Notes: a model not told the origin generated them from the letters alone. A stretch of DNA of 64,000 nt from Chloroflexota bacterium (GCA_002716405.1 PBBA01000006.1:70142-134141); one strand, 5' to 3'; positions 8,142 through 52,510 are shown, counted from the first letter of the stretch. Program-made: numbers and translations.

Positions 8142-9524
8142 ATGCAAACAAAATCTAAGTTCTCCGGGAAAAATGTAACTGTTGTTGGTCTAGGAATAGA
8201 AGGGATCGATCTTGTACGTTATTTAACCAAGCAAGGAGCAAAGGTAATAGTTTCTGATTCACGAAAAGAAGCAGAATTGACAGAACAAATCCACTCAATT
8301 GCTGACTGTTCTCCTACTTTGTCGCTTGGCAAAAATCGCATTAAACAGATGCTCTCTTCAGAAATGATCTTCGTATCACAAGGAGTTAATCAAAACGCTA
8401 CATTTATAAATACTGCCCGAAAAAATGGAATAGAAATATCTTCCATGTCAAAATTATTTCTACAGATATGTCCCGTTAATATTACTGCAGTAACAGGTTC
8501 ATCAGGTAAAACCACAACGACATTTTTACTAGATAGTATTCTTACAAATTCAAAAATACCCCATTTAATTGGGGGGAATATCGGTATTGGTTTACTTGGT
8601 TTACTCGAAAATATAACTCCTGAATCCAGGGTATTAATTGAATTATCACATACACAATTAGAGACTATTGATAACAGCCCACAATTATCTTGTGTGACCA
8701 ACGTCACTCCCAATCACCTAGACAAATTCTCTTGGGATTCTTATGTAAACCTTAAACGCCGTATTTTTGAATTCCAAAATAAAGAAGATACTGTCATCCT
8801 TAATTTTGATAATAATATATGCAGAGAATTCTCTACTGAATCTGTTGGAAACGTGATCTATACATCTAGAAAACAAAATTTAAATACCGATGGTGTTTAT
8901 CTAGAAAATGAAAAAATATATGCACAATTTCAACAAGAAATATTACCAATTATGAACGTTGGTGATATATCTATACCAGGAATACACAATATCGAAAATG
9001 TATTGTCCGCTTCTGCTTTGGCTCTTCAAATGGGTGTTCCGGTTAAAGAAATCAGTGATGCAGTATCAAGTTTCCAAGGAGTTCCTCATAGGCTAGAATC
9101 AGTGGCTATTAAATCTGGAGTTTTATACGTAAATGATTCAATCGCCACCACTCCAGAACGTACCATTGCAGGAATTAATTCATTCAAACAACCTATCGTC
9201 ATAATCTTAGGTGGCAGAGACAAAAATCTTCCACTGAGTGAAATGGCTGATCTAATCAATCAACGCTGCCGCGCAGTAATCACTTTTGGAGAAGCATCAG
9301 AGCTTTATGCAAAGTCTATAGCCGATATACTTCAAGGTAACTCACCAACAATAGACCAAGTCGAAAATGTATCTGACGCAGTTATGATCGCTCAACGACG
9401 AGCTCAATCAGGGGATGTAGTTTTATTTTCTCCAGCAGGAACATCTTTCGATGCTTTTCATACTTTCGAAGAAAGAGGGGCTTCCTTCATAGAGGCAGTA
9501 TCACAGATAGGCGAAAAATTTTGA
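8142..9524 (+). CDS. murD: UDP-N-acetylmuramoylalanine--D-glutamate ligase
   Basis: N-terminal Rossmann-like segment (VTVVGLGIEG) and a GSSGKTTTT P-loop. dcw position. Confidence 0.9.
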   Translation: MQTKSKFSGKNVTVVGLGIEGIDLVRYLTKQGAKVIVSDSRKEAELTEQIHSIADCSPTLSLGKNRIKQMLSSEMIFVSQGVNQNATFINTARKNGIEISSMSKLFLQICPVNITAVTGSSGKTTTTFLLDSILTNSKIPHLIGGNIGIGLLGLLENITPESRVLIELSHTQLETIDNSPQLSCVTNVTPNHLDKFSWDSYVNLKRRIFEFQNKEDTVILNFDNNICREFSTESVGNVIYTSRKQNLNTDGVYLENEKIYAQFQQEILPIMNVGDISIPGIHNIENVLSASALALQMGVPVKEISDAVSSFQGVPHRLESVAIKSGVLYVNDSIATTPERTIAGINSFKQPIVIILGGRDKNLPLSEMADLINQRCRAVITFGEASELYAKSIADILQGNSPTIDQVENVSDAVMIAQRRAQSGDVVLFSPAGTSFDAFHTFEERGASFIEAVSQIGEKF

Positions 9525-24586: not shown

Positions 24587-24663
24587 GGCCCCGTAGTGTA
24601 GCGGTCTAACACGCAACCCTGTCACGGTTGAGATCGGCGGTTCGAATCCGCTCGGGGTCGCCA
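24587..24663 (+). tRNA. tRNA-Asp (anticodon GUC), with encoded CCA
   Basis: Cloverleaf folded by hand: acceptor GGCCCCG/CGGGGTC, D-stem GTGT/ACAC, anticodon stem CAACC/GGTTG with loop CTGTCAC (GTC at positions 34-36), T-arm GGCGG-TTCGAAT-CCGCT, discriminator G, CCA. A TTGACC -35-like hexamer lies ~40 bp upstream. Confidence 0.9.
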
Positions 24664-26417: not shown

Positions 26418-28769
26418 TTAGACCGAAGGAGAATCGACAATTATCCCCAGTTCAAACAGCTCGGTAATATCTAAAGAAGAGTATCCAAGAATTTCACCCA
26501 AAATTTGACCATAATGCTCTCCAAGACCAGGTGAGCGTACCCAAGAATCATAACCACGTTCATTATAAAATTTTACCGGTGAACCATCGTAGGATTGTTC
26601 ACCGGCATCCAGCTCTTCTACACTAAAAAAATAACCACGTTCTAATAAATGTTCATCATTTAACCATTCAGGAGAGGAATTAACAACCCCAGCGGGGATA
26701 GATATTTTTTGTAATTGCTTCATTAATTCAACTTTGTCCAGATCTTTTGTCCAATTATCTATCAATTCATCCAACAGTATTTTATTAATTTTTCTATTGG
26801 TAATGGAATTAAACTTATCTTCATTTTCCCAGTTTTTTTCTACCAAAGTACATAATCGATACCATTCACTATCCGAGCGAATTGAAATTGCAATCCATTC
26901 ATCATCGCCTAAGCAACGATATACTCCATTAGGAGCAAAATCGTTATGTAGATTAGGTGCTATTTGAGGTTCACTTTGATTTAATTGTGATGCAAGAAAA
27001 TATTCACCAAAATATCCTACCCCACATTCATGTTGAGAAAGCTCTACAAAACTTCCTTCATTTGTTCGGTTACGTCGTTCTAGGGCAGTCATTACAGCAG
27101 CGGTTGCTGCTGTCCCAGACATAGCATCGGTCAAAGCTTGTACAGACATTCGAGGTTCCTCTGAACTATAACCCAAAAGAGCACAAACACCTGTTAAGGG
27201 TTCGATACTGGGACCCAAACCAATATATTCACGATAGGGACCACTTAACCCAAATGCTGGCATAGCCACATAAATAATTTGTGAATTACGTTTCTTTAAC
27301 TCAAAGTAATCAAGGCCAAGTGAGGGCATTGCACGGGCACTAAAATTTTCGATAACAACATCGCTTTTTTCAACTAGTTCAAGAAATACTTCACGTCCAC
27401 GATTTGCTTTAAGGTTTATAGCTAAACTTTTTTTATTTCGATTAAGTTTATTATTGAGCCCTTGACGATTCCAAGGAGTAACACCAGGATCGTTATCGGG
27501 ATAGTAACCAGATTTATCAGCAGAACTAGTTACTTTTCTTGGACCTCGACCATCTTGAGCTTCAATTTTTATAATTTCTGCCCCCATATCACCAAGTATT
27601 CGTGTTGCCAAAGGACCTGACCATATCCGAGTGAGATCAAGTACACGTAATCCTTTTAGTGGTTGCACATTAGTGTATCGGGGATTTTTAAATTCGTTCT
27701 TTTTAGTTTCCCACTTAATATCTTCGGGTAGATATGTTTGAGGTGGATTTTCTTCAGGAACTTCTTCACCAGCAAATTTGAATGGTGACCCTGCCGTCTG
27801 TACTTCAGTATTTCCATAATTAATTGTTTTCCAAAAGTTACGAAATCTAAGGTGTTCATCACCTAAAACCTCTCCTAAACTTTGTTGAATACCTATAGGT
27901 ACTCTCCATGTTTCCTGACCAGTTTTAAATAAAGTTGCCCGATCTAGATCTGAAAATGCATCCTCGATAATAGAGGTTATTTCATCAACCCTTTTCATTC
28001 TTTCTGAATTTTCCGCATACTCGATATCATGTGCTTTTTCTCCCATTCCTAACATAAACGCGAATGGTTCCCAGAACCGTGGAAGTATATTGACTCCTAC
28101 CCACCCATCAGCGCACCTAACCATTGTGGTAGGGCAAAGATTTTGCCATTGATTGCCATGACGACTTCTAATATCTTTATGTTGTGACCACATAACATCG
28201 GTAAATTGATGCAATCCAACTACCGTTTCAAATATAGAAATTTCAATAGTTTCTTTTTCAGAAATCACAACACCTGATAAATACTGAGCAATTGCAGCAA
28301 TATATGCAAAAGTTCCAGCTTGATAGTATGGATACCGACCAGGCAAAGTTAATGGAGTTCGTCCAATATCACCTGACAAAAAAGTATAACCACCTTGAGC
28401 AAGTATTGTTGTTTCTGTAGCTTCGTAGTCACGATAAGGCCCTGAAAGACCGAATGGAGTGATTGAGACTTTTACCGAATTATTACTAGCACATTCAAAT
28501 ATTCTATACTCATCTAAAATTTTGGGAGACAAGTCAGTAAGTACAATGTCCGCTTCACTTAGTATTGAAGAAAACAAGTCACGCTGTGAATCATCAAAAT
28601 AATTAATTTTTATATGACGTTTACCTGCATTCAAATATAAATTATCCGCCTCTGCGACTTGTTGCCGGTAAGGAGTTTCTACCTTTATGACTTCTGCGCC
28701 CCAGCGCGCGAAAAGTTTTCCTGCATAAGCAGCTGCATTTTCACTATCGCTTATTTCAACAACACGCAT
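26418..28769 (-). CDS. Tandem double-domain CoA-transferase family III (CaiB/BaiF) fusion protein, 783 aa
   Basis: The N-terminal half (~1-365) is a divergent CaiB-like domain (AAYAGKLFARWGAEVIKVETP). The C-terminal half (~370-783) is canonical (LKGLRVLDLTRIWSGPLATRILGDMGAEIIKIE). Confidence 0.8.
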   Translation of the reverse strand: MRVVEISDSENAAAYAGKLFARWGAEVIKVETPYRQQVAEADNLYLNAGKRHIKINYFDDSQRDLFSSILSEADIVLTDLSPKILDEYRIFECASNNSVKVSITPFGLSGPYRDYEATETTILAQGGYTFLSGDIGRTPLTLPGRYPYYQAGTFAYIAAIAQYLSGVVISEKETIEISIFETVVGLHQFTDVMWSQHKDIRSRHGNQWQNLCPTTMVRCADGWVGVNILPRFWEPFAFMLGMGEKAHDIEYAENSERMKRVDEITSIIEDAFSDLDRATLFKTGQETWRVPIGIQQSLGEVLGDEHLRFRNFWKTINYGNTEVQTAGSPFKFAGEEVPEENPPQTYLPEDIKWETKKNEFKNPRYTNVQPLKGLRVLDLTRIWSGPLATRILGDMGAEIIKIEAQDGRGPRKVTSSADKSGYYPDNDPGVTPWNRQGLNNKLNRNKKSLAINLKANRGREVFLELVEKSDVVIENFSARAMPSLGLDYFELKKRNSQIIYVAMPAFGLSGPYREYIGLGPSIEPLTGVCALLGYSSEEPRMSVQALTDAMSGTAATAAVMTALERRNRTNEGSFVELSQHECGVGYFGEYFLASQLNQSEPQIAPNLHNDFAPNGVYRCLGDDEWIAISIRSDSEWYRLCTLVEKNWENEDKFNSITNRKINKILLDELIDNWTKDLDKVELMKQLQKISIPAGVVNSSPEWLNDEHLLERGYFFSVEELDAGEQSYDGSPVKFYNERGYDSWVRSPGLGEHYGQILGEILGYSSLDITELFELGIIVDSPSV

Positions 28770-33443: not shown

Positions 33444-34751
33444 TTATTTCTGCACTAAAGATCTGTTCAATAGTTCAATTACATGTAGGACCTCTGCATC
33501 AAATCCACTCTTCCGTACACCTGATTGTAATTGCAAAGTACACCCAGGATTGGCAGTACAAATAATTGAACTCTCAGTTGTAAGAATATCTTCCATTTTA
33601 GTATCGAGAATATTGTTAGACATCTCAGATTGCACCAAAGAATAAATTCCTGCTGAACCACAGCATCGATCAGGATTACTCATTTCATGAAGATTAATTC
33701 CAGGGATTTGATTAAGAATATCTCTCGGAGCTTTTCGAATTCCTTGTGCATGAGCAAGATGACAAGAATCTTGCAAGGTCACATTAATATCAATCTTTGA
33801 AAGGCTGTTTTGAAAATTTTCTTCCTGCATACGTGGTGCAACAAATTCCAGAATATCTTCAACTTTATCTGAAAAAACTTGTGCTCGTTCTGACCACTTA
33901 ATATCTTCACGCAATAAATGATCATATTCCTTCAAAGTAGAACCACACCCTGCAGCATTCACAATAATTGCATCAACTTGATGTTCTTCAAATGCTCTGA
34001 TATTTTTTCTGGCCAATTCACGGCTTTTTTGCATATCACCTGCATGTAAATGAAGTGCTCCACAACATACTTGAGAAGGAGGGGCTATTACTTCACAACC
34101 TAATTTTTCTAACACATTTATGGTCGCTTCATGCGTTTGAGGGAATATTTCCCCTTGAACACAGCCCATTATCAGCGCAACTCGCATAGAAGCATTATCA
34201 GGTGAAGATAGAATTTCTCGTTGATGAAAGCGTTTTGAATTAATTTCAGGGATCAATGCCTCAAAGTTAACAATACGCTTTGGAAGCCACTTATAAATAT
34301 GTTTTCGAAATAAACTTTGTAATCTTGTTTTTGAATATATACGTAATGGTAATATCGCCAATCTTAAAATTATTGGCCTAACGATGACATTACGTAGCAA
34401 AAAAGTACGTAATCGCCATTGCTTAGGTTGTAATGATCGTGGATTAGACATAATTGATGCTCGAGCATCCTCCATAATTCTTCCATACGGTACACCTGAA
34501 GGACATGCAGTTTCACATGCTCGGCATTGTAAACAAAGATCCAAATGACCAAGCAAGCGATCATTTATATCAATACGACCAGAACGAACTGCATCTATAA
34601 GATGCAGTCGCCCTCGAGGTGATTCTAATTCATGCCCGGTGGAGATATATGTCGGGCATGAAGGCAAACAAAATCCACAATGAATACAATTACGGAGATC
34701 TTCCGCAGACGGAATATCTGTACCGACGAATTTAATTGGCATAAATGACAT
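33444..34751 (-). CDS. glcF: Glycolate oxidase iron-sulfur subunit GlcF ((Fe-S)-binding protein with 2x CCG domains)
   Basis: Two 4Fe-4S ferredoxin-type Cys clusters (CIHCGFCLPSCP, CLQCRACETACP) and two Cys-rich CCG domains. Confidence 0.8.
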   Translation of the reverse strand: MSFMPIKFVGTDIPSAEDLRNCIHCGFCLPSCPTYISTGHELESPRGRLHLIDAVRSGRIDINDRLLGHLDLCLQCRACETACPSGVPYGRIMEDARASIMSNPRSLQPKQWRLRTFLLRNVIVRPIILRLAILPLRIYSKTRLQSLFRKHIYKWLPKRIVNFEALIPEINSKRFHQREILSSPDNASMRVALIMGCVQGEIFPQTHEATINVLEKLGCEVIAPPSQVCCGALHLHAGDMQKSRELARKNIRAFEEHQVDAIIVNAAGCGSTLKEYDHLLREDIKWSERAQVFSDKVEDILEFVAPRMQEENFQNSLSKIDINVTLQDSCHLAHAQGIRKAPRDILNQIPGINLHEMSNPDRCCGSAGIYSLVQSEMSNNILDTKMEDILTTESSIICTANPGCTLQLQSGVRKSGFDAEVLHVIELLNRSLVQK

Positions 34752-36020
34752 CTAGACACCAACCATCCATCGTCCAGGGTTCAGAATCCCAGAGGGGTCA
34801 AATCGATACTTTAATGAACGTACAAGATCTGTTTCAATATCACCAAACGGATCAAATACTTCACGAATATTGCCTGGAGCTGTTTCAACTTGCATAAAAC
34901 CACCTAAGCCTTCAACTTGCGAGCGAAATTTCGATAACGAAACAACATTAATATCTTCAAAAATTACCCGCACAGATCCAGATGTTAAATTGGCCCATGT
35001 ACAAATTGCTGATGTTAATTCTGCAAGTTTAATAACCTCAACAATATTATTAGCTTGGACACCACATCGTAATACAATCTGTTCTTTTTTTTCATTGGCC
35101 AAAGAGCGAATTTCAGCCCAAATTTGAGAATCTTCTAGTTGATTAATTTCACCAAATCTACGCATTATTTCCTCAGTATCCTGTATCGAACGATGAATTG
35201 ATACTTCAATTCCGACATACTCAACTAACACCTTCGGTGCATACGAAAATCCTAACTTAAAAGATGTCTTAGAATCCAAAATTGTCAATCCACGAATAGG
35301 AAGAACACTATTGCGAAGAATAAAAGCCAAATCACCTGCTTCTTTGATGTCAGAACAATGTAAAATCAATGAAACATTTCTTTCAGGAATTGGAAGAACT
35401 TTAAATGATGCGCTCGATATTATACCAAGTGAACCCAAGGCGCCGGTATGCAATCGATGCATATCAAACCCACTCACATTTTTTACCACACGACCCCCAC
35501 TTGTAGCTATAGATCCATCGGCCATAACTACTGTCATTCCTAAAATAAGATCTCGAGTGGAAGGTACATTTCCCCTCCAAGCCCCTGAACGAGCTGTTGC
35601 AAGCAAGCCACCGATCGTAACAACATCACTAGGATTAGGATCAGCTGGCAAATATTGTCTATGCTCTGAAAGAATAGCTTGAAGATCATGCAATGTAGCT
35701 CCAGATTCAATAGTTACCGTAAGATCTTCAGGAGTATATTCGACTAATTTTGATATTCCAGATGTATCGAGTGCAATATCATATCTCTCTAGTTTTCGAC
35801 CGAAAGTCAGTGCAGTACGGCTACCTTGAGGACTGACAGCAAAGTTATACTGATTGGCAAATTGAATAATTTGAGATATTTGATCAATATGTAGCGGGCG
35901 AAACGCTGATAGAGGTACCTTACCATCAATGACATACATTTCGGGCTCACGACAAATTTCAGGAGGTAAAGATTTTATAAAATTTCCTATAGATTCAGGA
36001 AATGCTTGAATATTAGACAT
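34752..36020 (-). CDS. glcE: Glycolate oxidase FAD-binding subunit GlcE. The start is taken at ATG 36020 (MSNIQ…); the ORF track extends to 36158.
   Basis: FAD-binding PCMH-type domain. It has the classic 8-nt ATGTCTAA overlap with the glcD stop. Confidence 0.75.
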   Translation of the reverse strand: MSNIQAFPESIGNFIKSLPPEICREPEMYVIDGKVPLSAFRPLHIDQISQIIQFANQYNFAVSPQGSRTALTFGRKLERYDIALDTSGISKLVEYTPEDLTVTIESGATLHDLQAILSEHRQYLPADPNPSDVVTIGGLLATARSGAWRGNVPSTRDLILGMTVVMADGSIATSGGRVVKNVSGFDMHRLHTGALGSLGIISSASFKVLPIPERNVSLILHCSDIKEAGDLAFILRNSVLPIRGLTILDSKTSFKLGFSYAPKVLVEYVGIEVSIHRSIQDTEEIMRRFGEINQLEDSQIWAEIRSLANEKKEQIVLRCGVQANNIVEVIKLAELTSAICTWANLTSGSVRVIFEDINVVSLSKFRSQVEGLGGFMQVETAPGNIREVFDPFGDIETDLVRSLKYRFDPSGILNPGRWMVGV

Positions 36021-37506
36021 AGACACCTGGTATGGAAAATTGTTGATCTGTAATTTGCATATGACCTTGAGCACAACCATGTCCAGTGGGGAGAATTTTA
36101 CAAGGATTAAAATTCCCCACGGGATCAAAAGAAAAACGTATTTTCTCCATAGCAGCAAGATCAGACTCTGTAAATACCCACTCCATATACGAACGCTTTT
36201 CTAAACCAATACCATGCTCACCTGTAATCGAACCACCTGCATCAACACAAAGCTTCATTATCTCTCCTCCAAGCTCCAACACGCGATCGGTAGCACCAGA
36301 TTCTAGGGGATCAAATAGAACCGTTGGATGAAGATTACCATCGCCAGCATGGAACATGTTTGCACATTTAAATCCAGCTTTATGACTAGCCAAAAGAACT
36401 TTATTTAATATCTCTGGCAATTTTGTACGTGGAACTACACCGTCAAGTAAATATATTGCTGGTGCTGTTTGGCCCAATGCACCAATTGCAGATTTACGAC
36501 CTTCCCAGAGCGATTCTCTTTCTAAGCTACTTTCGGCTATTCTGACCTCACGTGCACCTAGCTCATTGCATGCCTTCACAACAACTGCAGAGTTATGCTC
36601 AACAACTTCTGATAAGCCTTCAACTTCAATTAACAAAACAGCACCAGCATCAATTGGATAGCCAGCTCGTACCCTAGGTTCCACTACCTTAATTGTTTCT
36701 TGATCCATCATTTCCATGGCCATAGGAATTACACCACTTCGAATCACTGCAGATACTGCACTAGAAGCAGCATCAATACTATCGAAAATAGCAAGCATCG
36801 TCCTAACAGTTTCATTAACAGGAATCAGGCTTACACATATCGCAGTAACGATTCCCAATGTTCCTTCTGATCCTACAAATACTCCACGTAAGTCCATACC
36901 AGGAGTATCCAACTGTCTACCTCCTAACCAAACAATTCTCCCTCCAGGTAAAACCACTTCCATTCCTAGGATGTGGTTAACCGTTGAACCATATGCCAAT
37001 GTATGAGGTCCACCTGAATTTGTACCTACATTACCACCAATAGTACATATACGTTGCGATGAAGGATCAGGAGCATAGATCAAGTTATAAGGTTCAAGTG
37101 CCTCATGAAGATGGAGATTAATAACCCCGGGTTCAACAATGGCTAAACGATTTTCAGCATCAATTTCTCTTATTTTATTCATAGCAGTGAGAACAATTAG
37201 GATTCCACCCTTTACAGGAAGTGCACCACCTGCAAATCCAGTCCCAGATCCTCGAGGTATCACAGGAATGTCATATTGCGCAGCCACCGTTACTGCATGA
37301 GATACTTCTTCAACAGTTGTAGGAAGAATTACAATATCAGGCAGTGCACGATCGATTGAAGTATCGTATTCATAAACCAGAAGATCTTCAGGAGCATCTA
37401 AGATTTTTGATCTCTTAATCTTTTTTGTAAGATCAAAAATTAATGCAGTAAGTTGATTATTTTCCATAGAATTGCAGTCTATCACTACTTTAGAGGCTCT
37501 AAGCAA
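36013..37506 (-). CDS. glcD: Glycolate oxidase subunit GlcD (FAD-linked oxidase)
   Basis: 497 aa with FAD_binding_4 and FAD-oxidase_C domains (PRGSGTGFAGGALP). Confidence 0.82.
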   Translation of the reverse strand: MLRASKVVIDCNSMENNQLTALIFDLTKKIKRSKILDAPEDLLVYEYDTSIDRALPDIVILPTTVEEVSHAVTVAAQYDIPVIPRGSGTGFAGGALPVKGGILIVLTAMNKIREIDAENRLAIVEPGVINLHLHEALEPYNLIYAPDPSSQRICTIGGNVGTNSGGPHTLAYGSTVNHILGMEVVLPGGRIVWLGGRQLDTPGMDLRGVFVGSEGTLGIVTAICVSLIPVNETVRTMLAIFDSIDAASSAVSAVIRSGVIPMAMEMMDQETIKVVEPRVRAGYPIDAGAVLLIEVEGLSEVVEHNSAVVVKACNELGAREVRIAESSLERESLWEGRKSAIGALGQTAPAIYLLDGVVPRTKLPEILNKVLLASHKAGFKCANMFHAGDGNLHPTVLFDPLESGATDRVLELGGEIMKLCVDAGGSITGEHGIGLEKRSYMEWVFTESDLAAMEKIRFSFDPVGNFNPCKILPTGHGCAQGHMQITDQQFSIPGVYV

Positions 37507-43948: not shown

Positions 43949-45286
43949 TCATTCTTCTTGTAATTGTAACTTGAAGTAATATTGATAACCAAAAGCAACT
44001 GCAAGAATTGCTTCGACCGATAAAGTAGTCAATACAGCAACTGCACCAACAATTGCACCATTCCAAAGGGTCAAATAACTAATCAATAATGCAAAAATTA
44101 CAAGACTGACTAAGCGACCAATATTTACAAATACAAGACTTTTTACTTGTTTATACTGCAGTAGCGCCGCTGCGAAAAGTTGTTCGATAACCATGATCAA
44201 AGGTAAAACTGACAAAACTTTCAGAGCAACTAAAGTTAGTTGATATAACCTACCTGAAACTCCTATTAAGTCATTTATTAAGAAATTAGAAAAAGATGGT
44301 ATCCACACAACTAACAGCACAAACAACGAACTTACGAAACCAATACGTAGAGAAAATCTAGTGATTTTTCTCAAATCCTCTCCTTGATTCATTAGTGCCA
44401 GAATTGTAGGAGTTAATCCACCGACCAAGAATGTAAAAAATGTAAAAATTCCCATAGCAAGAGGAAACGCTGCTAAAGATAATTTTGATTCTGGGGCATG
44501 TGAGACAAGAGCTAAAATGAAAGGTTTACTAAATGCTGGAAGAAAAGCAACGAATAGTAATGGAGTGAAAAATTTAGTTAATTCTAACTGTGTTAGCTTA
44601 AGATTTTTATTAGATTGCTCTAAATTAAGAGAAATCAGTACTAGGGAAATTAACATTAGACAAAATTCAATCAAGTTCGCAAATACAACAGATATAGCTG
44701 CAATTTGAGATCCTTGAATGCCTAAAAACGATAATGAAATTGCACACACACAAATACTTAGAACGTTAGTAATTAATCCAATCCATACAATTTTTGGTCT
44801 TTCAATTCTCAGTGCTATTCCGTAGAGATACATTTTTATAATCATTAAAGCAGGAACTGGCATCATCCAAAAAAATGAAGTTTTTGCTTCCTTTTGAAGA
44901 GCAGCATCTGTAGAAAAAATAGCACCAAAGATAAAATTAGATAAAGGTGTAATGCCAATAATTAATGTAATAACTGATGCAATAATTGCAAGCCTTATAA
45001 CAAAAACTCTTAATACCCTTAAGGAATAAACATCTTGTAAAAAGATTAAGGTCAAATGTTGAACACGTAATTGAGGTAATGCGATCAATCCGATCAATCC
45101 AAACGATATTGCAAAACCTCCTATAGCAAGTTCTGGATCGTCTGCACGTGCCATTATTGCATTTAATATTGGTTCCATAATTATAACTAAGGTTAAATTA
45201 AGGGCAGAAGGCAAAAGGAGAACAAAACCACGTTGCGAAAATTGCATTTCGCTAAATATTAATTTTGCACTAAAAGTCTTGTTCAA
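43949..45286 (-). CDS. MOP/MATE-superfamily polytopic membrane exporter (putative flippase or efflux protein)
   Basis: 445 aa with ~12 TM helices. The family is assigned from topology only. Confidence 0.35.
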   Translation of the reverse strand: MNKTFSAKLIFSEMQFSQRGFVLLLPSALNLTLVIIMEPILNAIMARADDPELAIGGFAISFGLIGLIALPQLRVQHLTLIFLQDVYSLRVLRVFVIRLAIIASVITLIIGITPLSNFIFGAIFSTDAALQKEAKTSFFWMMPVPALMIIKMYLYGIALRIERPKIVWIGLITNVLSICVCAISLSFLGIQGSQIAAISVVFANLIEFCLMLISLVLISLNLEQSNKNLKLTQLELTKFFTPLLFVAFLPAFSKPFILALVSHAPESKLSLAAFPLAMGIFTFFTFLVGGLTPTILALMNQGEDLRKITRFSLRIGFVSSLFVLLVVWIPSFSNFLINDLIGVSGRLYQLTLVALKVLSVLPLIMVIEQLFAAALLQYKQVKSLVFVNIGRLVSLVIFALLISYLTLWNGAIVGAVAVLTTLSVEAILAVAFGYQYYFKLQLQEE

Positions 45287-45304: not shown

Positions 45305-46819
45305 CTAGGAAACCACTGTTTGAGCTGCATTATCACCTGCAGTACGTCCAAAGACAGCCCCAGACATCAATCCTGTTCCTCCAGCATAATTATGAAAAAA
45401 CAGGCCACCTACTAATTCACCAGTAGCATATAAACCCTTAATTGGTAAATCATCAGTATCCAAAACTTGAGCAGTTTTAGGATTAATCTTTAAACCTCCA
45501 AAAGTAAAAGTTAAACCCGTTGTAACCGCAACTCCAAAATAAGGTGGTTGATTTAGTGGTAATGCCCAATTAGATTTTGGAGGCTCTATACCCTCGGTTT
45601 TTACTCCATCAAGGATTGCAGGATTATAATTACCCGATTGACAAGCACTATTAAATTGTTCCACAGTCTGTTTCAATCCACCAATATCTATACCTAATGC
45701 ATCTGCAAGTTCTTCAATGGTATTTGCTTCCGCTTTTGTGATCTCACGAATTCGATATTCATCGCGAAGCATAGATATTGTTTGCTGATCAAATAATTGA
45801 AAGGCAACGCCCAAAGGTTGTTTAAGTATTTCTCGACCATATTTAGCATATGTGTAATTTCGAAAATCAGCTCCTTCATCCACAAATCGTTCTCCATTAA
45901 CATTAACAATCATTCCAAGTGGGTACGAATGCTTTTGATACAAATCACCAATTCGACGGTTACCCGTTGGTGGAGCATTGAGATCCCAAGCCACTGCATG
46001 GCCACTAGACCAATGACCATAAGGTTGTGCACCAATGTCAATTGCAGCACGGATCATATCACCCATGTTATGTCTAGTTCCTCGAACTTTAGCGAATTCC
46101 CATCCTGCACCTAAATATCGAGTTCGCATTTCAACATTAGATTCAAACCCACCTGCTGCAAGAATTATTGCATCTGCAGCAATTACTTCAGTAGATTCAC
46201 GTGTTTTGACTTTGACACCGATTACAGCATTATTTTGTTCATTAACTACTAACCCTAAAGCACGACAGCCATACTGTATTTCAATTCCTGCTTCTTCAGT
46301 GGCAGAAAAAAGCCTGTCCGAAAGTCCTTCACCTCCTCCTACAGCCTCAGTAATCATGCCTCCCCAAAATTTTAATTTCCCATCAACTTCATAAGCTTGA
46401 CGGCCATACATGAGAACCCAGCGTTGATTATGGCGATCTCTCATCCATTTGACAGTATCGTATGCATTACGCACTAAATGCTCGACCATACCATCATCGG
46501 CTTGACCTTCAGTAACTCGAAATAAATCTGAACGCATTGCAGATTCGGGATAACTACCAACTTCAATTTTTGCAAGTTCTTCATCCGAAAGATCAGGCAT
46601 TAATTCAAGAATATCTTCAATACCATTATACGGAAAACGAAATCCACCTCCGGTAAAAAAAGTATTACCTCCACGTTCACCTTGATCGGCTTTTTCTAAT
46701 ACTGTGACTTCAACATTATGTTCACTAGCAGCTAAAGCGGCACACAAAGCTGCATTTCCTGCACCTACTACAACTACTTTTGGCATTGCTACTCCTCCAA
46801 TGTATTTCACAATAGACAA
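45305..46819 (-). CDS. FAD-dependent oxidoreductase (succinate dehydrogenase/fumarate reductase flavoprotein-like, KstD/TcuA-like). The likely start is MPKVVVVGAG at 46786.
   Basis: VVVVGAGNAALCAALAA dinucleotide-binding motif; FAD_binding_2-like length and C-terminus. Confidence 0.75.
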   Translation of the reverse strand: MSIVKYIGGVAMPKVVVVGAGNAALCAALAASEHNVEVTVLEKADQGERGGNTFFTGGGFRFPYNGIEDILELMPDLSDEELAKIEVGSYPESAMRSDLFRVTEGQADDGMVEHLVRNAYDTVKWMRDRHNQRWVLMYGRQAYEVDGKLKFWGGMITEAVGGGEGLSDRLFSATEEAGIEIQYGCRALGLVVNEQNNAVIGVKVKTRESTEVIAADAIILAAGGFESNVEMRTRYLGAGWEFAKVRGTRHNMGDMIRAAIDIGAQPYGHWSSGHAVAWDLNAPPTGNRRIGDLYQKHSYPLGMIVNVNGERFVDEGADFRNYTYAKYGREILKQPLGVAFQLFDQQTISMLRDEYRIREITKAEANTIEELADALGIDIGGLKQTVEQFNSACQSGNYNPAILDGVKTEGIEPPKSNWALPLNQPPYFGVAVTTGLTFTFGGLKINPKTAQVLDTDDLPIKGLYATGELVGGLFFHNYAGGTGLMSGAVFGRTAGDNAAQTVVS

Positions 46820-46847: not shown

Positions 46848-47627
46848 CTAAATTTCACTACCCAAAATTTGAAAAATTTCACTTTTAATTTGTGTAAATT
46901 CTGTAGAATGAATCACTTTCTTTTTTCGAGGCCTTTCAATACTTACATCAACGCGCTTAATAATTGAACCAGGTCGTTCCGACAAGATGTAGATAGTATC
47001 AGAAAGTAAAATAGCCTCATCGACATCATGAGTAACTAGAATTATTGTTCGACGATCGTGATCCCATATCTGCTGAAGCCATTGTTGCATTTCATAACGT
47101 GTTAATGCATCAAGTGAACCAAATGGTTCGTCGAGTAATATCGTGTCCTTGGGAATTAAAAAAGTTCTAAGCAATGCTAATCTCTGACGCATACCACCAG
47201 ATAATTGATTAGGCCAAACTTTTTCAAACCCTGCAAGACCAAATAGTTCATATAATTCTGATGCTTTTTGAAAAGCTACCTTCCGAGGAACACCTAAAAT
47301 TTCAGCTCCAAGTACAGCATTTTTCTCAACTGTACGCCAAGGAAATAGAGTGTCTCTTTGAGGCATAAATGCCACACGCCCTAAACTACTGAAACTTTTT
47401 TCACCATTAACATAAATTACTCCTTTAGACGGATTGAGTAATCCAGAAATTAAGTGAAGTAGCGTACTTTTGCCAGATCCACTAGGACCAATAAAGCTTA
47501 CAAAATCACCAGTATTAACTTTAAAAGATATATCTCGTAAAGCATCTATTTTTTGTGATTGAGTATATGTATAGTCAACACCTTCAACATCTACAGCAAC
47601 GTCTTCCATAGTTATAGATTCTATCAC
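46848..47627 (-). CDS. ABC transporter ATP-binding protein (NitT/TauT family; ThiZ-like)
   Basis: Walker A GPSGSGKST, signature LSGGMRQR, Walker B ILLDEPFGSLD. Confidence 0.9.
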   Translation of the reverse strand: MIESITMEDVAVDVEGVDYTYTQSQKIDALRDISFKVNTGDFVSFIGPSGSGKSTLLHLISGLLNPSKGVIYVNGEKSFSSLGRVAFMPQRDTLFPWRTVEKNAVLGAEILGVPRKVAFQKASELYELFGLAGFEKVWPNQLSGGMRQRLALLRTFLIPKDTILLDEPFGSLDALTRYEMQQWLQQIWDHDRRTIILVTHDVDEAILLSDTIYILSERPGSIIKRVDVSIERPRKKKVIHSTEFTQIKSEIFQILGSEI

Positions 47628-48641
47628 TTAGGGTAAAAATTCATTGGAATATACATTTTCCACTTCTAAAGAATTCTCTGTAATCCCAGATTGTAGAAGA
47701 AAGCTTTCAAATCCTTCCCAAATATCTAATTCTTGGTAACCCCATTGACTATTTTCATCTTTATATCGAGTAGCTAAATATAGAGTACTTTTTCTAACTA
47801 ATTGTTCATCTAACTCAGGGACAGACTTTAACAAAATAGTAGCTGCTTCATCAGGATTACTCATTGCATATTCATATCCACGATTTGTAGCATCAAGAAA
47901 ACTAGTAATTAAGTCAGGGTTTTCAGAAATCAATTTATCGTTACTTGCGATTAATGGTGTATACCAATCGGGAATACAATTAGTGTAATCGATGAATTTT
48001 AGTGTCTTTATCTCAACACCATCCATACTTTTTGCCCTGATAACATCCCATCCTTCAAAAACCCATACAAAGTCAAATCTACCTTGTTGCATACCTGGAA
48101 CATAATCAATGTTTCCAACTTCAACATACTTAACTTTGTTAGGGTCTCCACCTGCACAGGTGACAAGTGTGTCAATTAAGCTTTTTTCCAACGGACCACC
48201 CCATCCACCATAAGTTTTACCTACAAGATCTTTAGGATTTTCTATTCCGGTAGAAGAAAGACTCATAAGACTTGAATCATTATGAGGTAAAATAGTCGCG
48301 ATCGATGTAATAGGAATTTCAGCTAATCGTGCAGGAATCATATACTCAGCATATGATATGCCAAAATCAACCTTCCCTTGACCTAAAACAGGCTCAACTC
48401 CTGCGGCTGCAGGTTCAATAATTTGAAGATCTATCCCCATTTCTTTATACCAGCCCTGATCTAAAGCAACGTAAATACCTGCGTGATTTGTATTAGGAGT
48501 CCAGTCCAACATCAACGTTGTAGTACGTAATTCATTACTATCATTACCATTCATACAACCAATGCTCACGATAATTAAAGTAACGACAGCAACCAATCTA
48601 ATGGTAATAACCTTAAGATAATTAGTAATCATTTCTTTCAT
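47628..48641 (-). CDS. ABC transporter substrate-binding protein, NMT1/THI5-like (ThiY-like HMP-binding protein candidate)
   Basis: 337 aa with an N-terminal TM/signal and an SsuA/THI5-type periplasmic binding fold. It lies downstream of a TPP riboswitch. Confidence 0.75.
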   Translation of the reverse strand: MKEMITNYLKVITIRLVAVVTLIIVSIGCMNGNDSNELRTTTLMLDWTPNTNHAGIYVALDQGWYKEMGIDLQIIEPAAAGVEPVLGQGKVDFGISYAEYMIPARLAEIPITSIATILPHNDSSLMSLSSTGIENPKDLVGKTYGGWGGPLEKSLIDTLVTCAGGDPNKVKYVEVGNIDYVPGMQQGRFDFVWVFEGWDVIRAKSMDGVEIKTLKFIDYTNCIPDWYTPLIASNDKLISENPDLITSFLDATNRGYEYAMSNPDEAATILLKSVPELDEQLVRKSTLYLATRYKDENSQWGYQELDIWEGFESFLLQSGITENSLEVENVYSNEFLP

Positions 48642-48657
48642 TTCCTCTCTCTCAAAT

Positions 48658-49440
48658 TTACTTATCTCCCATATCGATCAATGCTTTCCTCCAAGGCATA
48701 GCAATATTCGATAGTATTTGTATTGATATAAATAGTGAGATGCTAAGTACTGCAATTACGATGATCGCCATGAATATCTGATCCGTTTGGAAAGATCTTT
48801 GAGATCTGACTAAGAATAACCCCAATCCTGAACTAGCACCCATCCATTCTGCAATCACTGCACCTATGACAGCGTACGTTGAAGCAATTCTTAGTCCAGA
48901 AAAGAAAGCTGGAATAGCTGAAGGAAAAAGTACTAATCGGAAAGTTTGCCATCGATTAGCACCAAGACCACGAACTAAAGAAATCATATCTTTATCTACA
49001 TTCATTAATCCATCTGCAGTATTCACAACAATTGGGAAAAAGCCTATAAGGACAACAATAATTACTTTAGGTGTCAGACCAAATCCAAACCACACAGCAA
49101 GTAGTGGGGCTAAAGCTAAAATCGGAATATTTTGACTAACTACAACAATGGGATATAAAACACGACGGATAAACGGTATACCGGCAATTAAAGCTGCTAT
49201 CAATACACCGATAATTACTGCAAAAAAAAGTCCAACTAGTGCTTCTGACATAGTAGTAAGTATATGTTCAGGTAAAATTGAAAAATGGTTAAGAAAAGAT
49301 TGCCCTACTGCACTAGGAGCAGGAACAAGATAGTCGGAAACATATCCTGACTTAACATACCATTCCCAAAAAAAAATGCTAAAAGCTAGAAATAACATAC
49401 ATGGAAAATATTCTTTATTTTTCTGCCGTAAATTATTCAC
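48658..49440 (-). CDS. ABC transporter permease (NitT/TauT family; ThiX-like)
   Basis: 260 aa, 6 TM helices, with an EAA-like loop. Confidence 0.85.
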   Translation of the reverse strand: MNNLRQKNKEYFPCMLFLAFSIFFWEWYVKSGYVSDYLVPAPSAVGQSFLNHFSILPEHILTTMSEALVGLFFAVIIGVLIAALIAGIPFIRRVLYPIVVVSQNIPILALAPLLAVWFGFGLTPKVIIVVLIGFFPIVVNTADGLMNVDKDMISLVRGLGANRWQTFRLVLFPSAIPAFFSGLRIASTYAVIGAVIAEWMGASSGLGLFLVRSQRSFQTDQIFMAIIVIAVLSISLFISIQILSNIAMPWRKALIDMGDK

Positions 49441-49491
49441 ACTAATTACCTAATTTCTGAAATTGTTCAATTTATAAACAGGTAATTTGCT

Positions 49492-49610
49492 AAAGAAAAG
49501 CGTAGAACTAGATAGAATGCCATTTAGCTACTCCGCTTCCCTACGCTCGAATTACCAAGTTCAGGTTCCTGGGGTTGAATCTATTCTCTCAGCCTCTAGG
49601 CTCCCCCAGC
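49492..49610 (-). ncRNA. TPP (thiamine pyrophosphate, THI-box) riboswitch with a putative terminator expression platform, in the 5' leader of the ABC transporter operon
   Basis: The - strand RNA reads CCGCUGGGGGAGCCUAGAGGCUGAGAGAAUAGAUUCAACCCCAGGAACCUGAACUUGGUAAUUCGAGCGUAGGGAAGCGG. It contains the conserved CUGAGA, ACCUGA, GGUAAU and GCGUAGGGAA elements and a P1 (CCGC/GCGG). Downstream, the hairpin GCGUAG…CUACGC is followed by UUUUCUUU (49492-49505). Confidence 0.75.
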
Positions 49611-49683
49611 GGATTAACCATGTTAAGAAGAAATTACTCTAGAAGTCAAACTACAGATACAATACTAATAACTGAGAAAAAAT

Positions 49684-50865
49684 ATGGAACTCAATAACAA
49701 AATTTTCGAAATACTAAAAGACTTAGTAGCACTGGATACTACTAGCAGAAATTCCAATTTGCCAGTCATAGAATATATTGAAAATTACTTAGATGACTAC
49801 AATATAAAAACACGAAGAATTTGGTATGAAGAAGGTAACAAATCCAACCTTCATGCAATAATTGGTCCTCCCCAAAAACATGGTTTAGCTTTATCAGCAC
49901 ACACTGATGTTGTTCCTGTAGACGGACAAAATTGGACTAGTGATCCGTGGATTCTCACGCAGAGAGAAGACAAATTATTTGGTAGAGGTACTGCTGATAT
50001 GAAAGGGTTTATAGCAGGTACTTTAGCAATGATACCTACTTTTAAGAAAGCAAACCTAGAAAGACCACTACATTTAATTTTCTCACCGGACGAAGAAATA
50101 GGATGCCTGGGAATTATTCCCTTGATAGAAGAGCTAATCGACTCGCCAAATAAACCCGATTATGTCATCGTCGGGGAACCAACTTCCTTACAGATTGTAT
50201 TGTCACACAAGGAACATTTTACTTTTCGCTGTAGTGTAACTGGTATAGAGAATCATTCTTCATTAGCACCTGAAGCAGTTAATGCTGTGGAATATGCATC
50301 ACGCTTAATTACAAAAATTACAGAGATCGCACGAAGAAAAGCAGATACAGGTCCTTATGACAGTGAATTTCATATCCCCTACACCACATTACATACAGGA
50401 CTCGTAAGAGGAGGAACAGCAGTAAATATAGTACCCAAACATGCAAATTTTGAATTCGAAATCAGAGCAATCCCCCTGGAAAATAGTAAGGAAATCGTAG
50501 AGGAAATACGTGATTTTATTAATAATCGATTGGTCCCCGAAATGAAATCAGTCTATAAGAATGCATCCATTGAATTAGATCTCATTTCGAATACACCTGG
50601 CCTAGATACTAGTCCGACTGAGATGATAGTTAATGAAGTTAAAAATTTAACTACAGATATTGGCCCAAATGCGCATGGCAAGGTAAGTTATGCTACTGAG
50701 GCAGGATTGTTTCAAAAAGCAGGATTTCCGACTGTAATCTGTGGTCCGGGTTCTATCGAACAAGCACATGGACCGGATGAATATATTACAATCGCTCAGC
50801 TTAACCTTTTAGAACAATTCCTATCGAGAATCAATATGTATCTACAAGAAAGGTCGATGCAATGA
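49684..50865 (+). CDS. M20-family metallopeptidase (ArgE/DapE-like acetylornithine deacetylase / succinyl-DAP desuccinylase)
   Basis: 393 aa with the LSAHTDVVP…GTADMKG…GEPT motifs of the M20 family. Confidence 0.85.
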   Translation: MELNNKIFEILKDLVALDTTSRNSNLPVIEYIENYLDDYNIKTRRIWYEEGNKSNLHAIIGPPQKHGLALSAHTDVVPVDGQNWTSDPWILTQREDKLFGRGTADMKGFIAGTLAMIPTFKKANLERPLHLIFSPDEEIGCLGIIPLIEELIDSPNKPDYVIVGEPTSLQIVLSHKEHFTFRCSVTGIENHSSLAPEAVNAVEYASRLITKITEIARRKADTGPYDSEFHIPYTTLHTGLVRGGTAVNIVPKHANFEFEIRAIPLENSKEIVEEIRDFINNRLVPEMKSVYKNASIELDLISNTPGLDTSPTEMIVNEVKNLTTDIGPNAHGKVSYATEAGLFQKAGFPTVICGPGSIEQAHGPDEYITIAQLNLLEQFLSRINMYLQERSMQ

Positions 50866-51812
50866 GATTAGTCACTTACAAGTCTTTAGGAACAAGTCGT
50901 ATCGGAGTATTAGATAATGAAGAAGTCATTGATCCGACACGTGCGCTTGCACTCCAGTTTTCAGAAAATAATTTTGCTCAACCCCTTCGCCGTGCAGAGC
51001 GGGAAATACCCTCCAACATGTTAGATTTGTTAGCACAAGGGAAAGAAACTTTAACAAAGGTAAGCGAGCTGACAAATTGGATTAAAAGTAACCCCGTTGC
51101 CAGAGAAAAAATGATTGATGATGGCATAATTATACTGCCTGATAATTTTACCTTTGATGCACCAATCCTTCGACCAGGAAAAGTAATGGCAATAGGCGTG
51201 AATTATAGAGCACATGCTGCAGAAATGGAACGAGAGCTACCTGAACATCCTACTGTATTTACCAAAGTTTCATCATGCATAGTTGGCACTGGCCATCCTA
51301 TCCATCATCCAAAAGTAAGCAATATGTTGGATTGGGAAGGAGAATTGTGCGTCGTAATAGGAGAAAAAGCTAGAAATATTAAAGCAGAAAATGCTATGGA
51401 GTATGTTGCAGGTTTTATGAATGGTGCAGATATAACTGTCCGAGACTGGCAAAGACATACTCCCACATGGATGATGGGTAAAAGTTGGGATACACATGGA
51501 CCCACAGGCCCTTGGATACTTACAACCGATGAAGTCCCATCCTACAAATCTCTTCATCTAAAAACATATATCAATGATATTGAAAAACAATCTGCGCCCG
51601 TTAGTGACTTGCTTTTTGATGTTGAAACACTCATCGAATACCTATCAACTGCTTTTACATTAGAGCCTGGTGATGTAATTTTTACAGGCACTCCAGCAGG
51701 AGTAGGGCAAGCTCGAGATCCTCAAGAATGGTTGTCGCCAGGAGATACCGTTCGTATAGAAATAACTGGCTTAGGAAGTCTAGTGAATCAAGTCATTGAC
51801 TATGGGAATTAG
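50862..51812 (+). CDS. Fumarylacetoacetate hydrolase (FAH) family protein
   Basis: 316 aa with a FAH fold (…GVNYRAHAAE…DWEGELCVVIG…GTPAGVG). Confidence 0.85.
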   Translation: MRLVTYKSLGTSRIGVLDNEEVIDPTRALALQFSENNFAQPLRRAEREIPSNMLDLLAQGKETLTKVSELTNWIKSNPVAREKMIDDGIIILPDNFTFDAPILRPGKVMAIGVNYRAHAAEMERELPEHPTVFTKVSSCIVGTGHPIHHPKVSNMLDWEGELCVVIGEKARNIKAENAMEYVAGFMNGADITVRDWQRHTPTWMMGKSWDTHGPTGPWILTTDEVPSYKSLHLKTYINDIEKQSAPVSDLLFDVETLIEYLSTAFTLEPGDVIFTGTPAGVGQARDPQEWLSPGDTVRIEITGLGSLVNQVIDYGN

Positions 51813-51871
51813 TTGGAAATTTAAATTAATTTGAACACAATAAACACCTTAAATAAAAATTTGGAATTGCA

Positions 51872-52510
51872 ATGTTAAGTGATTTCAATAACGGCCAAAA
51901 CGAAATCATTTTTTTACGTCAATATAGCGATTTAACACTACGGAGCATTGAGGTTTCTTCTGATGCACTACTTGAAAGGCTTTTTCTCGCAGAAACTAGT
52001 CAAAGAAACCTTCTAGGCTTAAGGTTATTGTCCGATCTAAGTGAATCTGCGCAAAGGTTAATGGCAGTATTCAATGCATTATCCACAAGAACCGTTAATG
52101 TAGCCAAAGCTTTGACTTACCCGTTACCTGAATCAGATAAATGGGATGTATTTTGTACAGATGTAATTGAGATTCCCCCAGAAACACTGATCAGAAAAAT
52201 GGGTATCGATGAAAGAGCAATTGAAAGTGCTTCAGAATTATCATCACTTACTGATCTCCCACGACACAAAAAATTAATTCAATTACATAGCAATGGTAAT
52301 CCTAATGTATTGATCGATAATTCTTCACCAACAACTATTCACCTTCTTAATCACACTCAAAACGGCAAGCAAATTACCATGTCAATAAATCTTTCAGAAG
52401 AAATAATAGTGGCAATCGCAGACACTACTGGACAATTTGTCCGTTTAGCACGAGATTTTTTGCTAACAAATGTAGAAATTCGAGAAGAATCTTTCCAAAA
52501 TTCAAAGTAA
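51872..52510 (+). CDS. Hypothetical protein (212 aa) immediately upstream of the MMPL transporter
   Basis: ORF only. Confidence 0.4.
   Translation: MLSDFNNGQNEIIFLRQYSDLTLRSIEVSSDALLERLFLAETSQRNLLGLRLLSDLSESAQRLMAVFNALSTRTVNVAKALTYPLPESDKWDVFCTDVIEIPPETLIRKMGIDERAIESASELSSLTDLPRHKKLIQLHSNGNPNVLIDNSSPTTIHLLNHTQNGKQITMSINLSEEIIVAIADTTGQFVRLARDFLLTNVEIREESFQNSK

Follow-up and report, generated by a model that had tools for sequence, protein, structure and literature searches.

A TPP riboswitch in the leader of a ThiXYZ-type importer operon of Chloroflexota, with a candidate translational switch

The regulation of thiXYZ by THI elements has already been described (PMC2211319), and in Chloroflexi the TPP-regulated genes are mostly transporters of thiamine and its precursors (PMC3766115). 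ThiXYZ, as found in Bacillus halodurans and others, combines an NMT1-family substrate-binding protein (SBP) with a nitrate/sulfonate-type permease and an ATPase behind a TPP riboswitch, and the operon discussed here has the same make-up. It differs in that its SBP is 30% identical to ThiY and in that relatives of the locus place a Thiamine_BP gene first. From the same phylum and transporter family comes RibXY of Chloroflexi, a ThiXYZ homologue whose specificity was assigned from the upstream riboswitch (PMC3766115). RibXY stands behind an FMN riboswitch and has no ATPase gene, whereas our operon carries a TPP aptamer and includes the ATPase.

The E. coli thiM TPP riboswitch is a translational OFF switch with an anti-Shine-Dalgarno (anti-SD) and an anti-anti-SD segment. 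In our folding calculations a linker segment likewise has two alternative partners, part of the aptamer and the SD, and once folded the aptamer would leave this segment free for the SD. The sequence and geometry of the platform, in contrast, are unrelated to those of thiM: the aptamer partner, as predicted from folding alone, consists of L5/P5 together with the P4 3' strand, J4/1, and the P1 3' strand, all taken up in a 77-nt rod.

All coordinates given below refer to the window, i.e., the whole 64-kb stretch of DNA that was analysed, whose sequence is that of metagenome contig MDTE01042152.1 (locus L001). The source is an AT-rich MAG of a marine Chloroflexota bacterium. The best explanation for the leader element of the window, to which we assign a probability of roughly 0.6, would be a canonical TPP riboswitch in a ThiXYZ-type leader that turns translation off through a three-part switch. 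The element itself is an ordinary member of a known family in a known context and involves no new principle; the mildly unusual points are limited to a parallel loss of the Thiamine_BP gene and an apparent re-fitting of the SD-sequestering helix after it.

The aptamer and its conservation

The element and the operon behind it comprise the following features, listed in the direction of transcription.

49620-49649, minus strand: promoter-like site, TTGACT-18 nt-TAACAT, from a consensus scan; the block is invariant in the leaders of three relatives (L002, L041, and L003)
49521-49617, minus strand: TPP riboswitch aptamer, Rfam RF00059 match; helical core from 49612-49608 (P1 5' strand) to 49537-49533 (P1 3' strand)
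48658-49440, minus strand: ABC permease, ThiX-like (BPD_transp_1, PF00528, 115 bits), with a GTG start
47628-48641, minus strand: SBP of the NMT1/THI5 family, ThiY-like (PF09084, 222.7 bits), with a probable lipoprotein signal ending in Cys
46848-47627, minus strand: ABC ATPase, ThiZ-like (PF00005, 98 bits)

When the whole window was compared with Rfam 15 by cmscan, the TPP family RF00059 scored 69.9 bits at 49617-49521 on the minus strand (E 1.1e-11; gathering score 54.3), and the alignment covers model positions 1-105 of 105. This score is far above chance expectation, and the minus-strand TPP riboswitch called in a first-pass annotation, which had named this very covariance model as its check, is thus upheld. 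Elsewhere in the 64 kb, Rfam matches at a single place, a tRNA with anticodon GUC (Asp) at 24587-24660 on the plus strand (63.5 bits).

The motifs on which that call was founded are all present on the minus strand. CUGAGA (49592-49587) lies in the J3/2 core, ACCUGA belongs to the pyrophosphate arm alongside the CG bulge and UAGGGA, GGUAAU(U) at 49556-49550 makes up L5 and the last P5 pair, and GCGUAGGGAA begins at 49546. P1 is formed by CCGCU (49612-49608) and AGCGG (49537-49533). Alignment to the model and direct reading agree that P1-P5 are all in place with the CUGAGA, ACCUGA, and GCGUAGGGA cores, and every pair that we assigned by hand is canonical. The limits proposed earlier, 49492-49610, need a small correction at the 5' end, where P1 starts at 49612; their 3' end coincides with the end of the U-rich tract. 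The element also stands out in composition as had been remarked, with 51% G+C in the aptamer versus roughly 30-40% in the surrounding region. Compared with the RF00059 family, we see no categorical difference; a P3 as short as the one here (GAA-UAGA-UUC) also occurs in other AT-rich members. The aptamer lies on the sense strand, about 80 nt 5' of the permease GTG and behind the promoter-like site, from which transcription would likely start at about the first base of P1.

For comparison, we collected 119 related loci from metagenomes and GTDB genomes, mainly from Dehalococcoidia and Tepidiformaceae and including some MAGs labelled Acidimicrobiales or Alphaproteobacteria. Among the first 19 loci, Rfam at its gathering score found TPP aptamers in 13. 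A clade model (R1) placed a sense-strand aptamer upstream of the transporter in 81 of 99 loci and in 19 of 20 further ones, 100 of 119 altogether; the 19 loci without an aptamer all end at a contig edge before the leader. The aptamer is thus present, at the same place, in 100 of the 100 related loci that have enough upstream sequence. With R1 the window aptamer itself scores 100.3 bits, on par with those of its relatives. Across 82 homologues (75 distinct), 97.5% of the cells in the alignment are paired, a figure that is favoured somewhat by the alignment having been fitted to the model, and double changes occur in 10 of 20 pairs. None of 500 shuffles was as good and slid controls gave 36-52% paired; the covariation supports P1, P2, and P5. 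We regard it as almost certain that the element is a TPP riboswitch controlling a ThiXYZ-type importer.

The importer, its cargo, and its neighbours

The three operon genes adjoin one another or are separated by gaps of at most 16 nt, and they follow the order permease-SBP-ATPase (X-Y-Z) behind one riboswitch. This order is kept, across 120 loci, wherever the contig covers the genes. The placement of the riboswitch in the leader of an NMT1/THI5-type ABC operon, with genes at 46848-49440, is borne out. The Cys that ends the probable lipoprotein signal of the SBP is found in the N-terminal consensus of the clade as well.

The closest solved homologue of the SBP is PDB 4NMY (E 1.2e-83, 43% identity over 295 aligned residues), which is listed in PMC10586155 as a Clostridioides difficile ABC substrate-binding protein deposited 'with thiamin-bound'. 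It comes from another phylum than the window SBP, and a crystal ligand need not be what the protein carries in the cell. ThiY of B. halodurans (PDB 3IX1; E 2.7e-35), the binding protein for N-formyl-4-amino-5-aminomethyl-2-methylpyrimidine (FAMP), is more distant, and the THI5/THI13 pyrimidine synthases rank next after it among the PDB matches. The link of the cargo genes to thiamine follows from the NMT1 Pfam match, the homology to 4NMY and ThiY, and the Thiamine_BP gene that shares the operon in relatives. From this we infer a cargo of thiamine, of its pyrimidine moiety, or of both. The ThiXYZ-like relabelling of what had been a generic transporter is supported by these homologies, although the narrower label of an HMP/thiamine-precursor importer, also proposed in the first-pass annotation, is reasonable yet too restrictive given the thiamin-bound 4NMY: the substrate could be thiamine itself. 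An identical SBP from a marine Chloroflexota MAG was deposited under the name 'myristoyl transferase', and the protein is otherwise annotated as part of a generic nitrate/sulfonate transporter. The former name is evidently wrong: the protein is an ABC substrate-binding lipoprotein of the NMT1/THI5 family. No other thiamine genes were found among the 38 window ORFs scanned, which run from 17908 on with a gap at 26418-28769.

Directly downstream of the ATPase lies a TcuA-like FAD-dependent dehydrogenase (46819-45305, minus strand; NF006130, 532 bits versus a cut-off of 369), which is 74-96% identical in marine relatives, far above the 52-88% of the transporter. Its real start is probably an ATG behind GGAGGAG near 46786, about 60 nt past the ATPase stop. 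It is followed by a polytopic membrane protein of 445 amino acids (43949-45286, minus strand), kept at 46-82% after the TcuA-like gene in L002, L003, L005, and L041. This membrane protein has no Pfam or NCBIfam match, and a PDB sequence search gave no hit at E<=1. We considered whether both belong to the regulated unit and rejected this. The flavoprotein has its own SD (GGAGGAG) and a promoter-like site. In L004, it follows the transporter at a distance of about 300 nt and has a TATAAT and an SD of its own; the gaps in L010 and L042 extend to about 500-600 nt, with an opposite-strand ORF inside that of L010. Moreover, the gene is absent from more than 100 other loci, and only in the closest marine clade is it a neighbour of the transporter.

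On the other side, a divergent cluster (49684-52510, plus strand) encodes an M20 peptidase, an FAA-hydrolase family protein, and a 212-aa protein without family hits. YlmB, the formylaminopyrimidine deformylase, is also an M20 enzyme, and a salvage role of the window peptidase is conceivable by analogy. We nevertheless set aside a YlmB-like function, since the synteny between this cluster and the transporter is limited to the closest marine clade and the peptidase matches the NCBIfam acetylornithine-deacetylase subfamily above its cut-off (488 bits).

In the freshwater Chloroflexi locus L014, an AdoCbl (B12) riboswitch (RF01482, 57.5 bits) is found at 8676-8812 on the plus strand, about 4 kb downstream of the operon for the thiamine transporter. 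In the window, three adjacent genes at 33444-37506 (minus strand) encode FAD_binding_4 plus FAD-oxidase_C, FAD_binding_4, and Fer4 plus CCG domains, a set that we take to resemble a glycolate oxidase GlcDEF-type cluster. As called, the ORFs of the two FAD proteins share about 145 nt, which probably means that one start codon is wrong.

Competing foldings of the leader

Downstream of the aptamer, four parts of the leader matter for its regulation.

49504-49532, minus strand: weak A/U-rich hairpin directly after P1, -5.0 kcal/mol; the sole stem before the U-rich tract when the aptamer is folded
49491-49502, minus strand: pyrimidine tract CGCUUUUCUUUA, of which CGCUUUUCU (49502-49494) pairs with AGGGAAGCG (49542-49534) in an aptamer-disrupting apo rod
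49480-49488, minus strand: candidate switching segment (anti-SD) AAAUUACCU, complementary both to GGUAAUU (49556-49550) and to the SD region AGGUAAUU (49451-49444)
49438-49451, minus strand: ribosome-binding region, with an SD-like AGGU in AGGUAAUU seven bases before the permease GTG (49440-49438)

Left free to fold, the segment 49556-49480 (77 nt) forms a rod that is both the minimum free energy (MFE) and the centroid structure (-26.8 kcal/mol, z -4.6; none of 200 shuffles equalled it). Its closing helix pairs GGUAAUU (49556-49550) with AAUUACC (49487-49481), and AGGGAAGCG, which comprises the last two bases of the P4 3' strand, J4/1, and most of the P1 3' strand, is drawn into it. The rod recurs in the two other lineages. 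In L002 it has the same architecture, with a C/U-variant tract that is still complementary to AGGGAAG (z -3.8). In L003 the same GGUAAUU:AAUUACC helix is formed, and GUAGGGA pairs with UUCCUAC in a shifted register (z -2.7). Between lineages the pyrimidine tract varies between C and U opposite G's and keeps U opposite A's, and AAAUUACC is invariant in the window, L002, L041, and L003 amid a variable linker. The closing helix shows no covariation because GGUAAUU is already conserved for aptamer reasons.

In the window, the partner of the anti-SD is L5/P5 when the leader folds freely and the SD when the aptamer is locked. On locking, the mean unpaired probability of the SD region drops from 0.40-0.45 to 0.17-0.18, versus 0.42 for shuffled linkers. 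The SD hairpin (49490-49438) has an energy of -9.3 kcal/mol (z -2.1). The aptamer-locked fold lies about 11 kcal/mol above the free MFE (-39.3 versus -50.3 kcal/mol), a gap comparable to the energy that tight, nanomolar TPP binding provides. Two mutually exclusive foldings thus exist, and both are stable and conserved.

These foldings suggest how the switch could work. When TPP is scarce, the 3' half of the aptamer (L5/P5, P4 3' strand, J4/1, and P1 3' strand; 49556-49533) would pair with the downstream linker; AGGGAAGCG:CGCUUUUCU and GGUAAUU:AAUUACC would then form the long rod, the SD would stay free, and the permease and the genes behind it would be translated. With TPP bound, the aptamer would fold and free AAUUACCU (49487-49480), which would pair with AGGUAAUU and occlude the ribosome-binding site, so that translation would be turned off as in E. 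coli thiM. That the cell makes use of the rod and the SD hairpin, and that control is translational, we infer from thermodynamic folding and, for this AT-rich expression platform, from only three distinct lineages.

Taken by itself, sequestration of the SD is a prediction that we slightly favour. The permease GTG and its N-terminus MNN(L/F)(R/S)Q are kept in L002 and L003. In L002, the anti-SD and the SD are paired in the free fold as well. Tested singly, the anti-SD:RBS duplex does not reach significance in the window (p ~0.10-0.13) or in L002 (p ~0.38). In L003, where the original SD has been deleted, four linker substitutions create CCUACUAAA, complementary to UUUGGUAGG in a new RBS, and this duplex reaches -15.0 kcal/mol (p ~0.04 versus shuffles). 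When linkers were paired with their RBS by RNAduplex against dinucleotide shuffles for 74 non-redundant leaders, the outcome was weakly positive (mean z -0.5; p<0.05 in 6 of 74), and no more than weakly so because GC-rich leaders pair well by chance. Across 78 leaders, SD accessibility goes from 0.35 in the free fold to 0.31 in the locked fold, and the locked value falls below that for shuffled linkers in 53 of them, a shift too small to settle how the family as a whole is regulated.

The leader has also been read in terms of transcription termination. The first-pass annotation pointed to a hairpin with a U-tract as the basis of an OFF switch, and the elements it quoted are indeed there: GCGUAG (49546-49541) can pair with CUACGC (49505-49500), followed by UUUUCUUU (49499-49492), and on its own this helix extends to GCGUAGGG:UUCUACGC with -15.3 kcal/mol. 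The 5' arm lies inside the aptamer, as was said, where it takes in the final base of P5, then the CG bulge and three bases from the 3' strand of P4. For this reason the stem excludes the folded aptamer and could form only without it, so that termination would occur in the absence of TPP and be relieved by its binding. This is ON logic, the opposite of the OFF switch claimed, and it would make no physiological sense for an importer of thiamine or its precursors. Enforcing the stem costs 5.4 kcal/mol relative to the best fold of the segment in the window, 8.9 in L002, and 6.9 in L003. The two nearest lineages, reading CUACAC (L002) and CUAU (L003), no longer have its closing pairs. We find a terminator of this kind hardly credible. 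The proposal of an OFF switch by termination is thus not supported in the form in which it was made, and the only hairpin compatible with the aptamer is the one of -5.0 kcal/mol at 49532-49504.

That hairpin could still support termination in the right direction. With TPP bound, it and the GC-UUUUCUUU stretch behind it (49501-49492) would act as an intrinsic terminator, alone or together with SD sequestration; without TPP, the rod would absorb the U-rich tract through pairing with AGGGAAGCG and so block termination. The aptamer-locked fold does contain a stem followed by the U-rich tract, whose unpaired probability rises from 0.20 to 0.54 on locking, the apo rod does sequester the tract, and a pyrimidine/U-rich tract after the CUAC/CUAU stem end is kept in L002 and L003. 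The stem itself, however, is very weak, with homologous hairpins of -2.5 (L002) and -3.1 kcal/mol (L003) whose inner pairs are not maintained, and in L002 the tract right after it is ACUUCUCUUU, a poor U-run. A terminator scan gave no hit at the hairpin and U-rich tract, and the stem, being weak and without covariation support, does not qualify as an intrinsic terminator. Since a U-rich tract (at least 6 U in 8 bases) is missing from 61 of 78 homologous leaders, the family at large cannot rely on intrinsic terminators. We therefore consider an OFF switch of this type unlikely, and equally doubt that the weak hairpin and U-tract contribute through termination or pausing. A U-tract after an aptamer is thus insufficient for calling a terminator, and when one arm of the stem is part of the aptamer, the direction of regulation is reversed.

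Loss of the first gene and its meaning

In 100 of 120 related loci, a Thiamine_BP gene (PF01910, YkoF/MTH1187 family) of about 97 codons separates the riboswitch from the permease; nowhere in its 64 kb does the window contain this gene. We compared the junction regions of the window (49441-49520), L002 (4840-5216), L003 (4415-4507), and L006 (4878-5072). In L002, an 88%-identical relative, and in L041, the gene is found behind exactly the leader and SD of the window (…AGAAAUUAGGUAAUUAUG). In L002 it is flanked by an imperfect direct repeat, TAGGTAATTAT … TAGGTGATTAT. The window junction reads TAGGTAATTA-GT-GTGAATAAT, which means that the SD of the small gene has been fused to the permease GTG. 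L003 (79% SBP identity) has no Thiamine_BP gene either, keeps the last ~40 nt of it, and has lost the original SD. As the two deletion junctions differ, the losses are independent. A third state is seen in L006, which holds an internally truncated copy.

A regulatory relic would be one way to understand such a leader. As the window is without the first gene that 100 of 120 relatives have, its leader is a deletion product, and the deletion may have uncoupled the aptamer from its platform, so that TPP would still be bound and the transporter no longer controlled. The deletion, however, kept the original SD AGGUAAUU, the anti-SD, and the whole linker, fused in register to the permease GTG, the aptamer scores equal those of the relatives, and the promoter block is conserved. 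We hold a relic to be very improbable.

The reading we prefer remains a working switch, and its history may be told, tentatively, as one of rewiring after parallel gene loss; we deem this possible rather than probable. The ancestor would have had the riboswitch, the Thiamine_BP gene, and thiX-thiY-thiZ. In the window, a deletion between TAGGTAATTAT/TAGGTGATTAT repeats such as those in L002 would have removed the small gene, and the old SD and anti-SD would have been reused for the permease. L003, left without the old SD, would have acquired a new anti-SD, CCUACUAAA, directed at the permease's own RBS. Should this be true, nature would have run a small experiment indicating that selection maintains the sequestration of the SD by the TPP riboswitch.

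For the organism, the annotation is corrected: a protein deposited under a misleading name belongs to a TPP-controlled importer of thiamine or a thiamine precursor. This reassignment bears on vitamin B1 auxotrophy and vitamer exchange in marine Chloroflexota.
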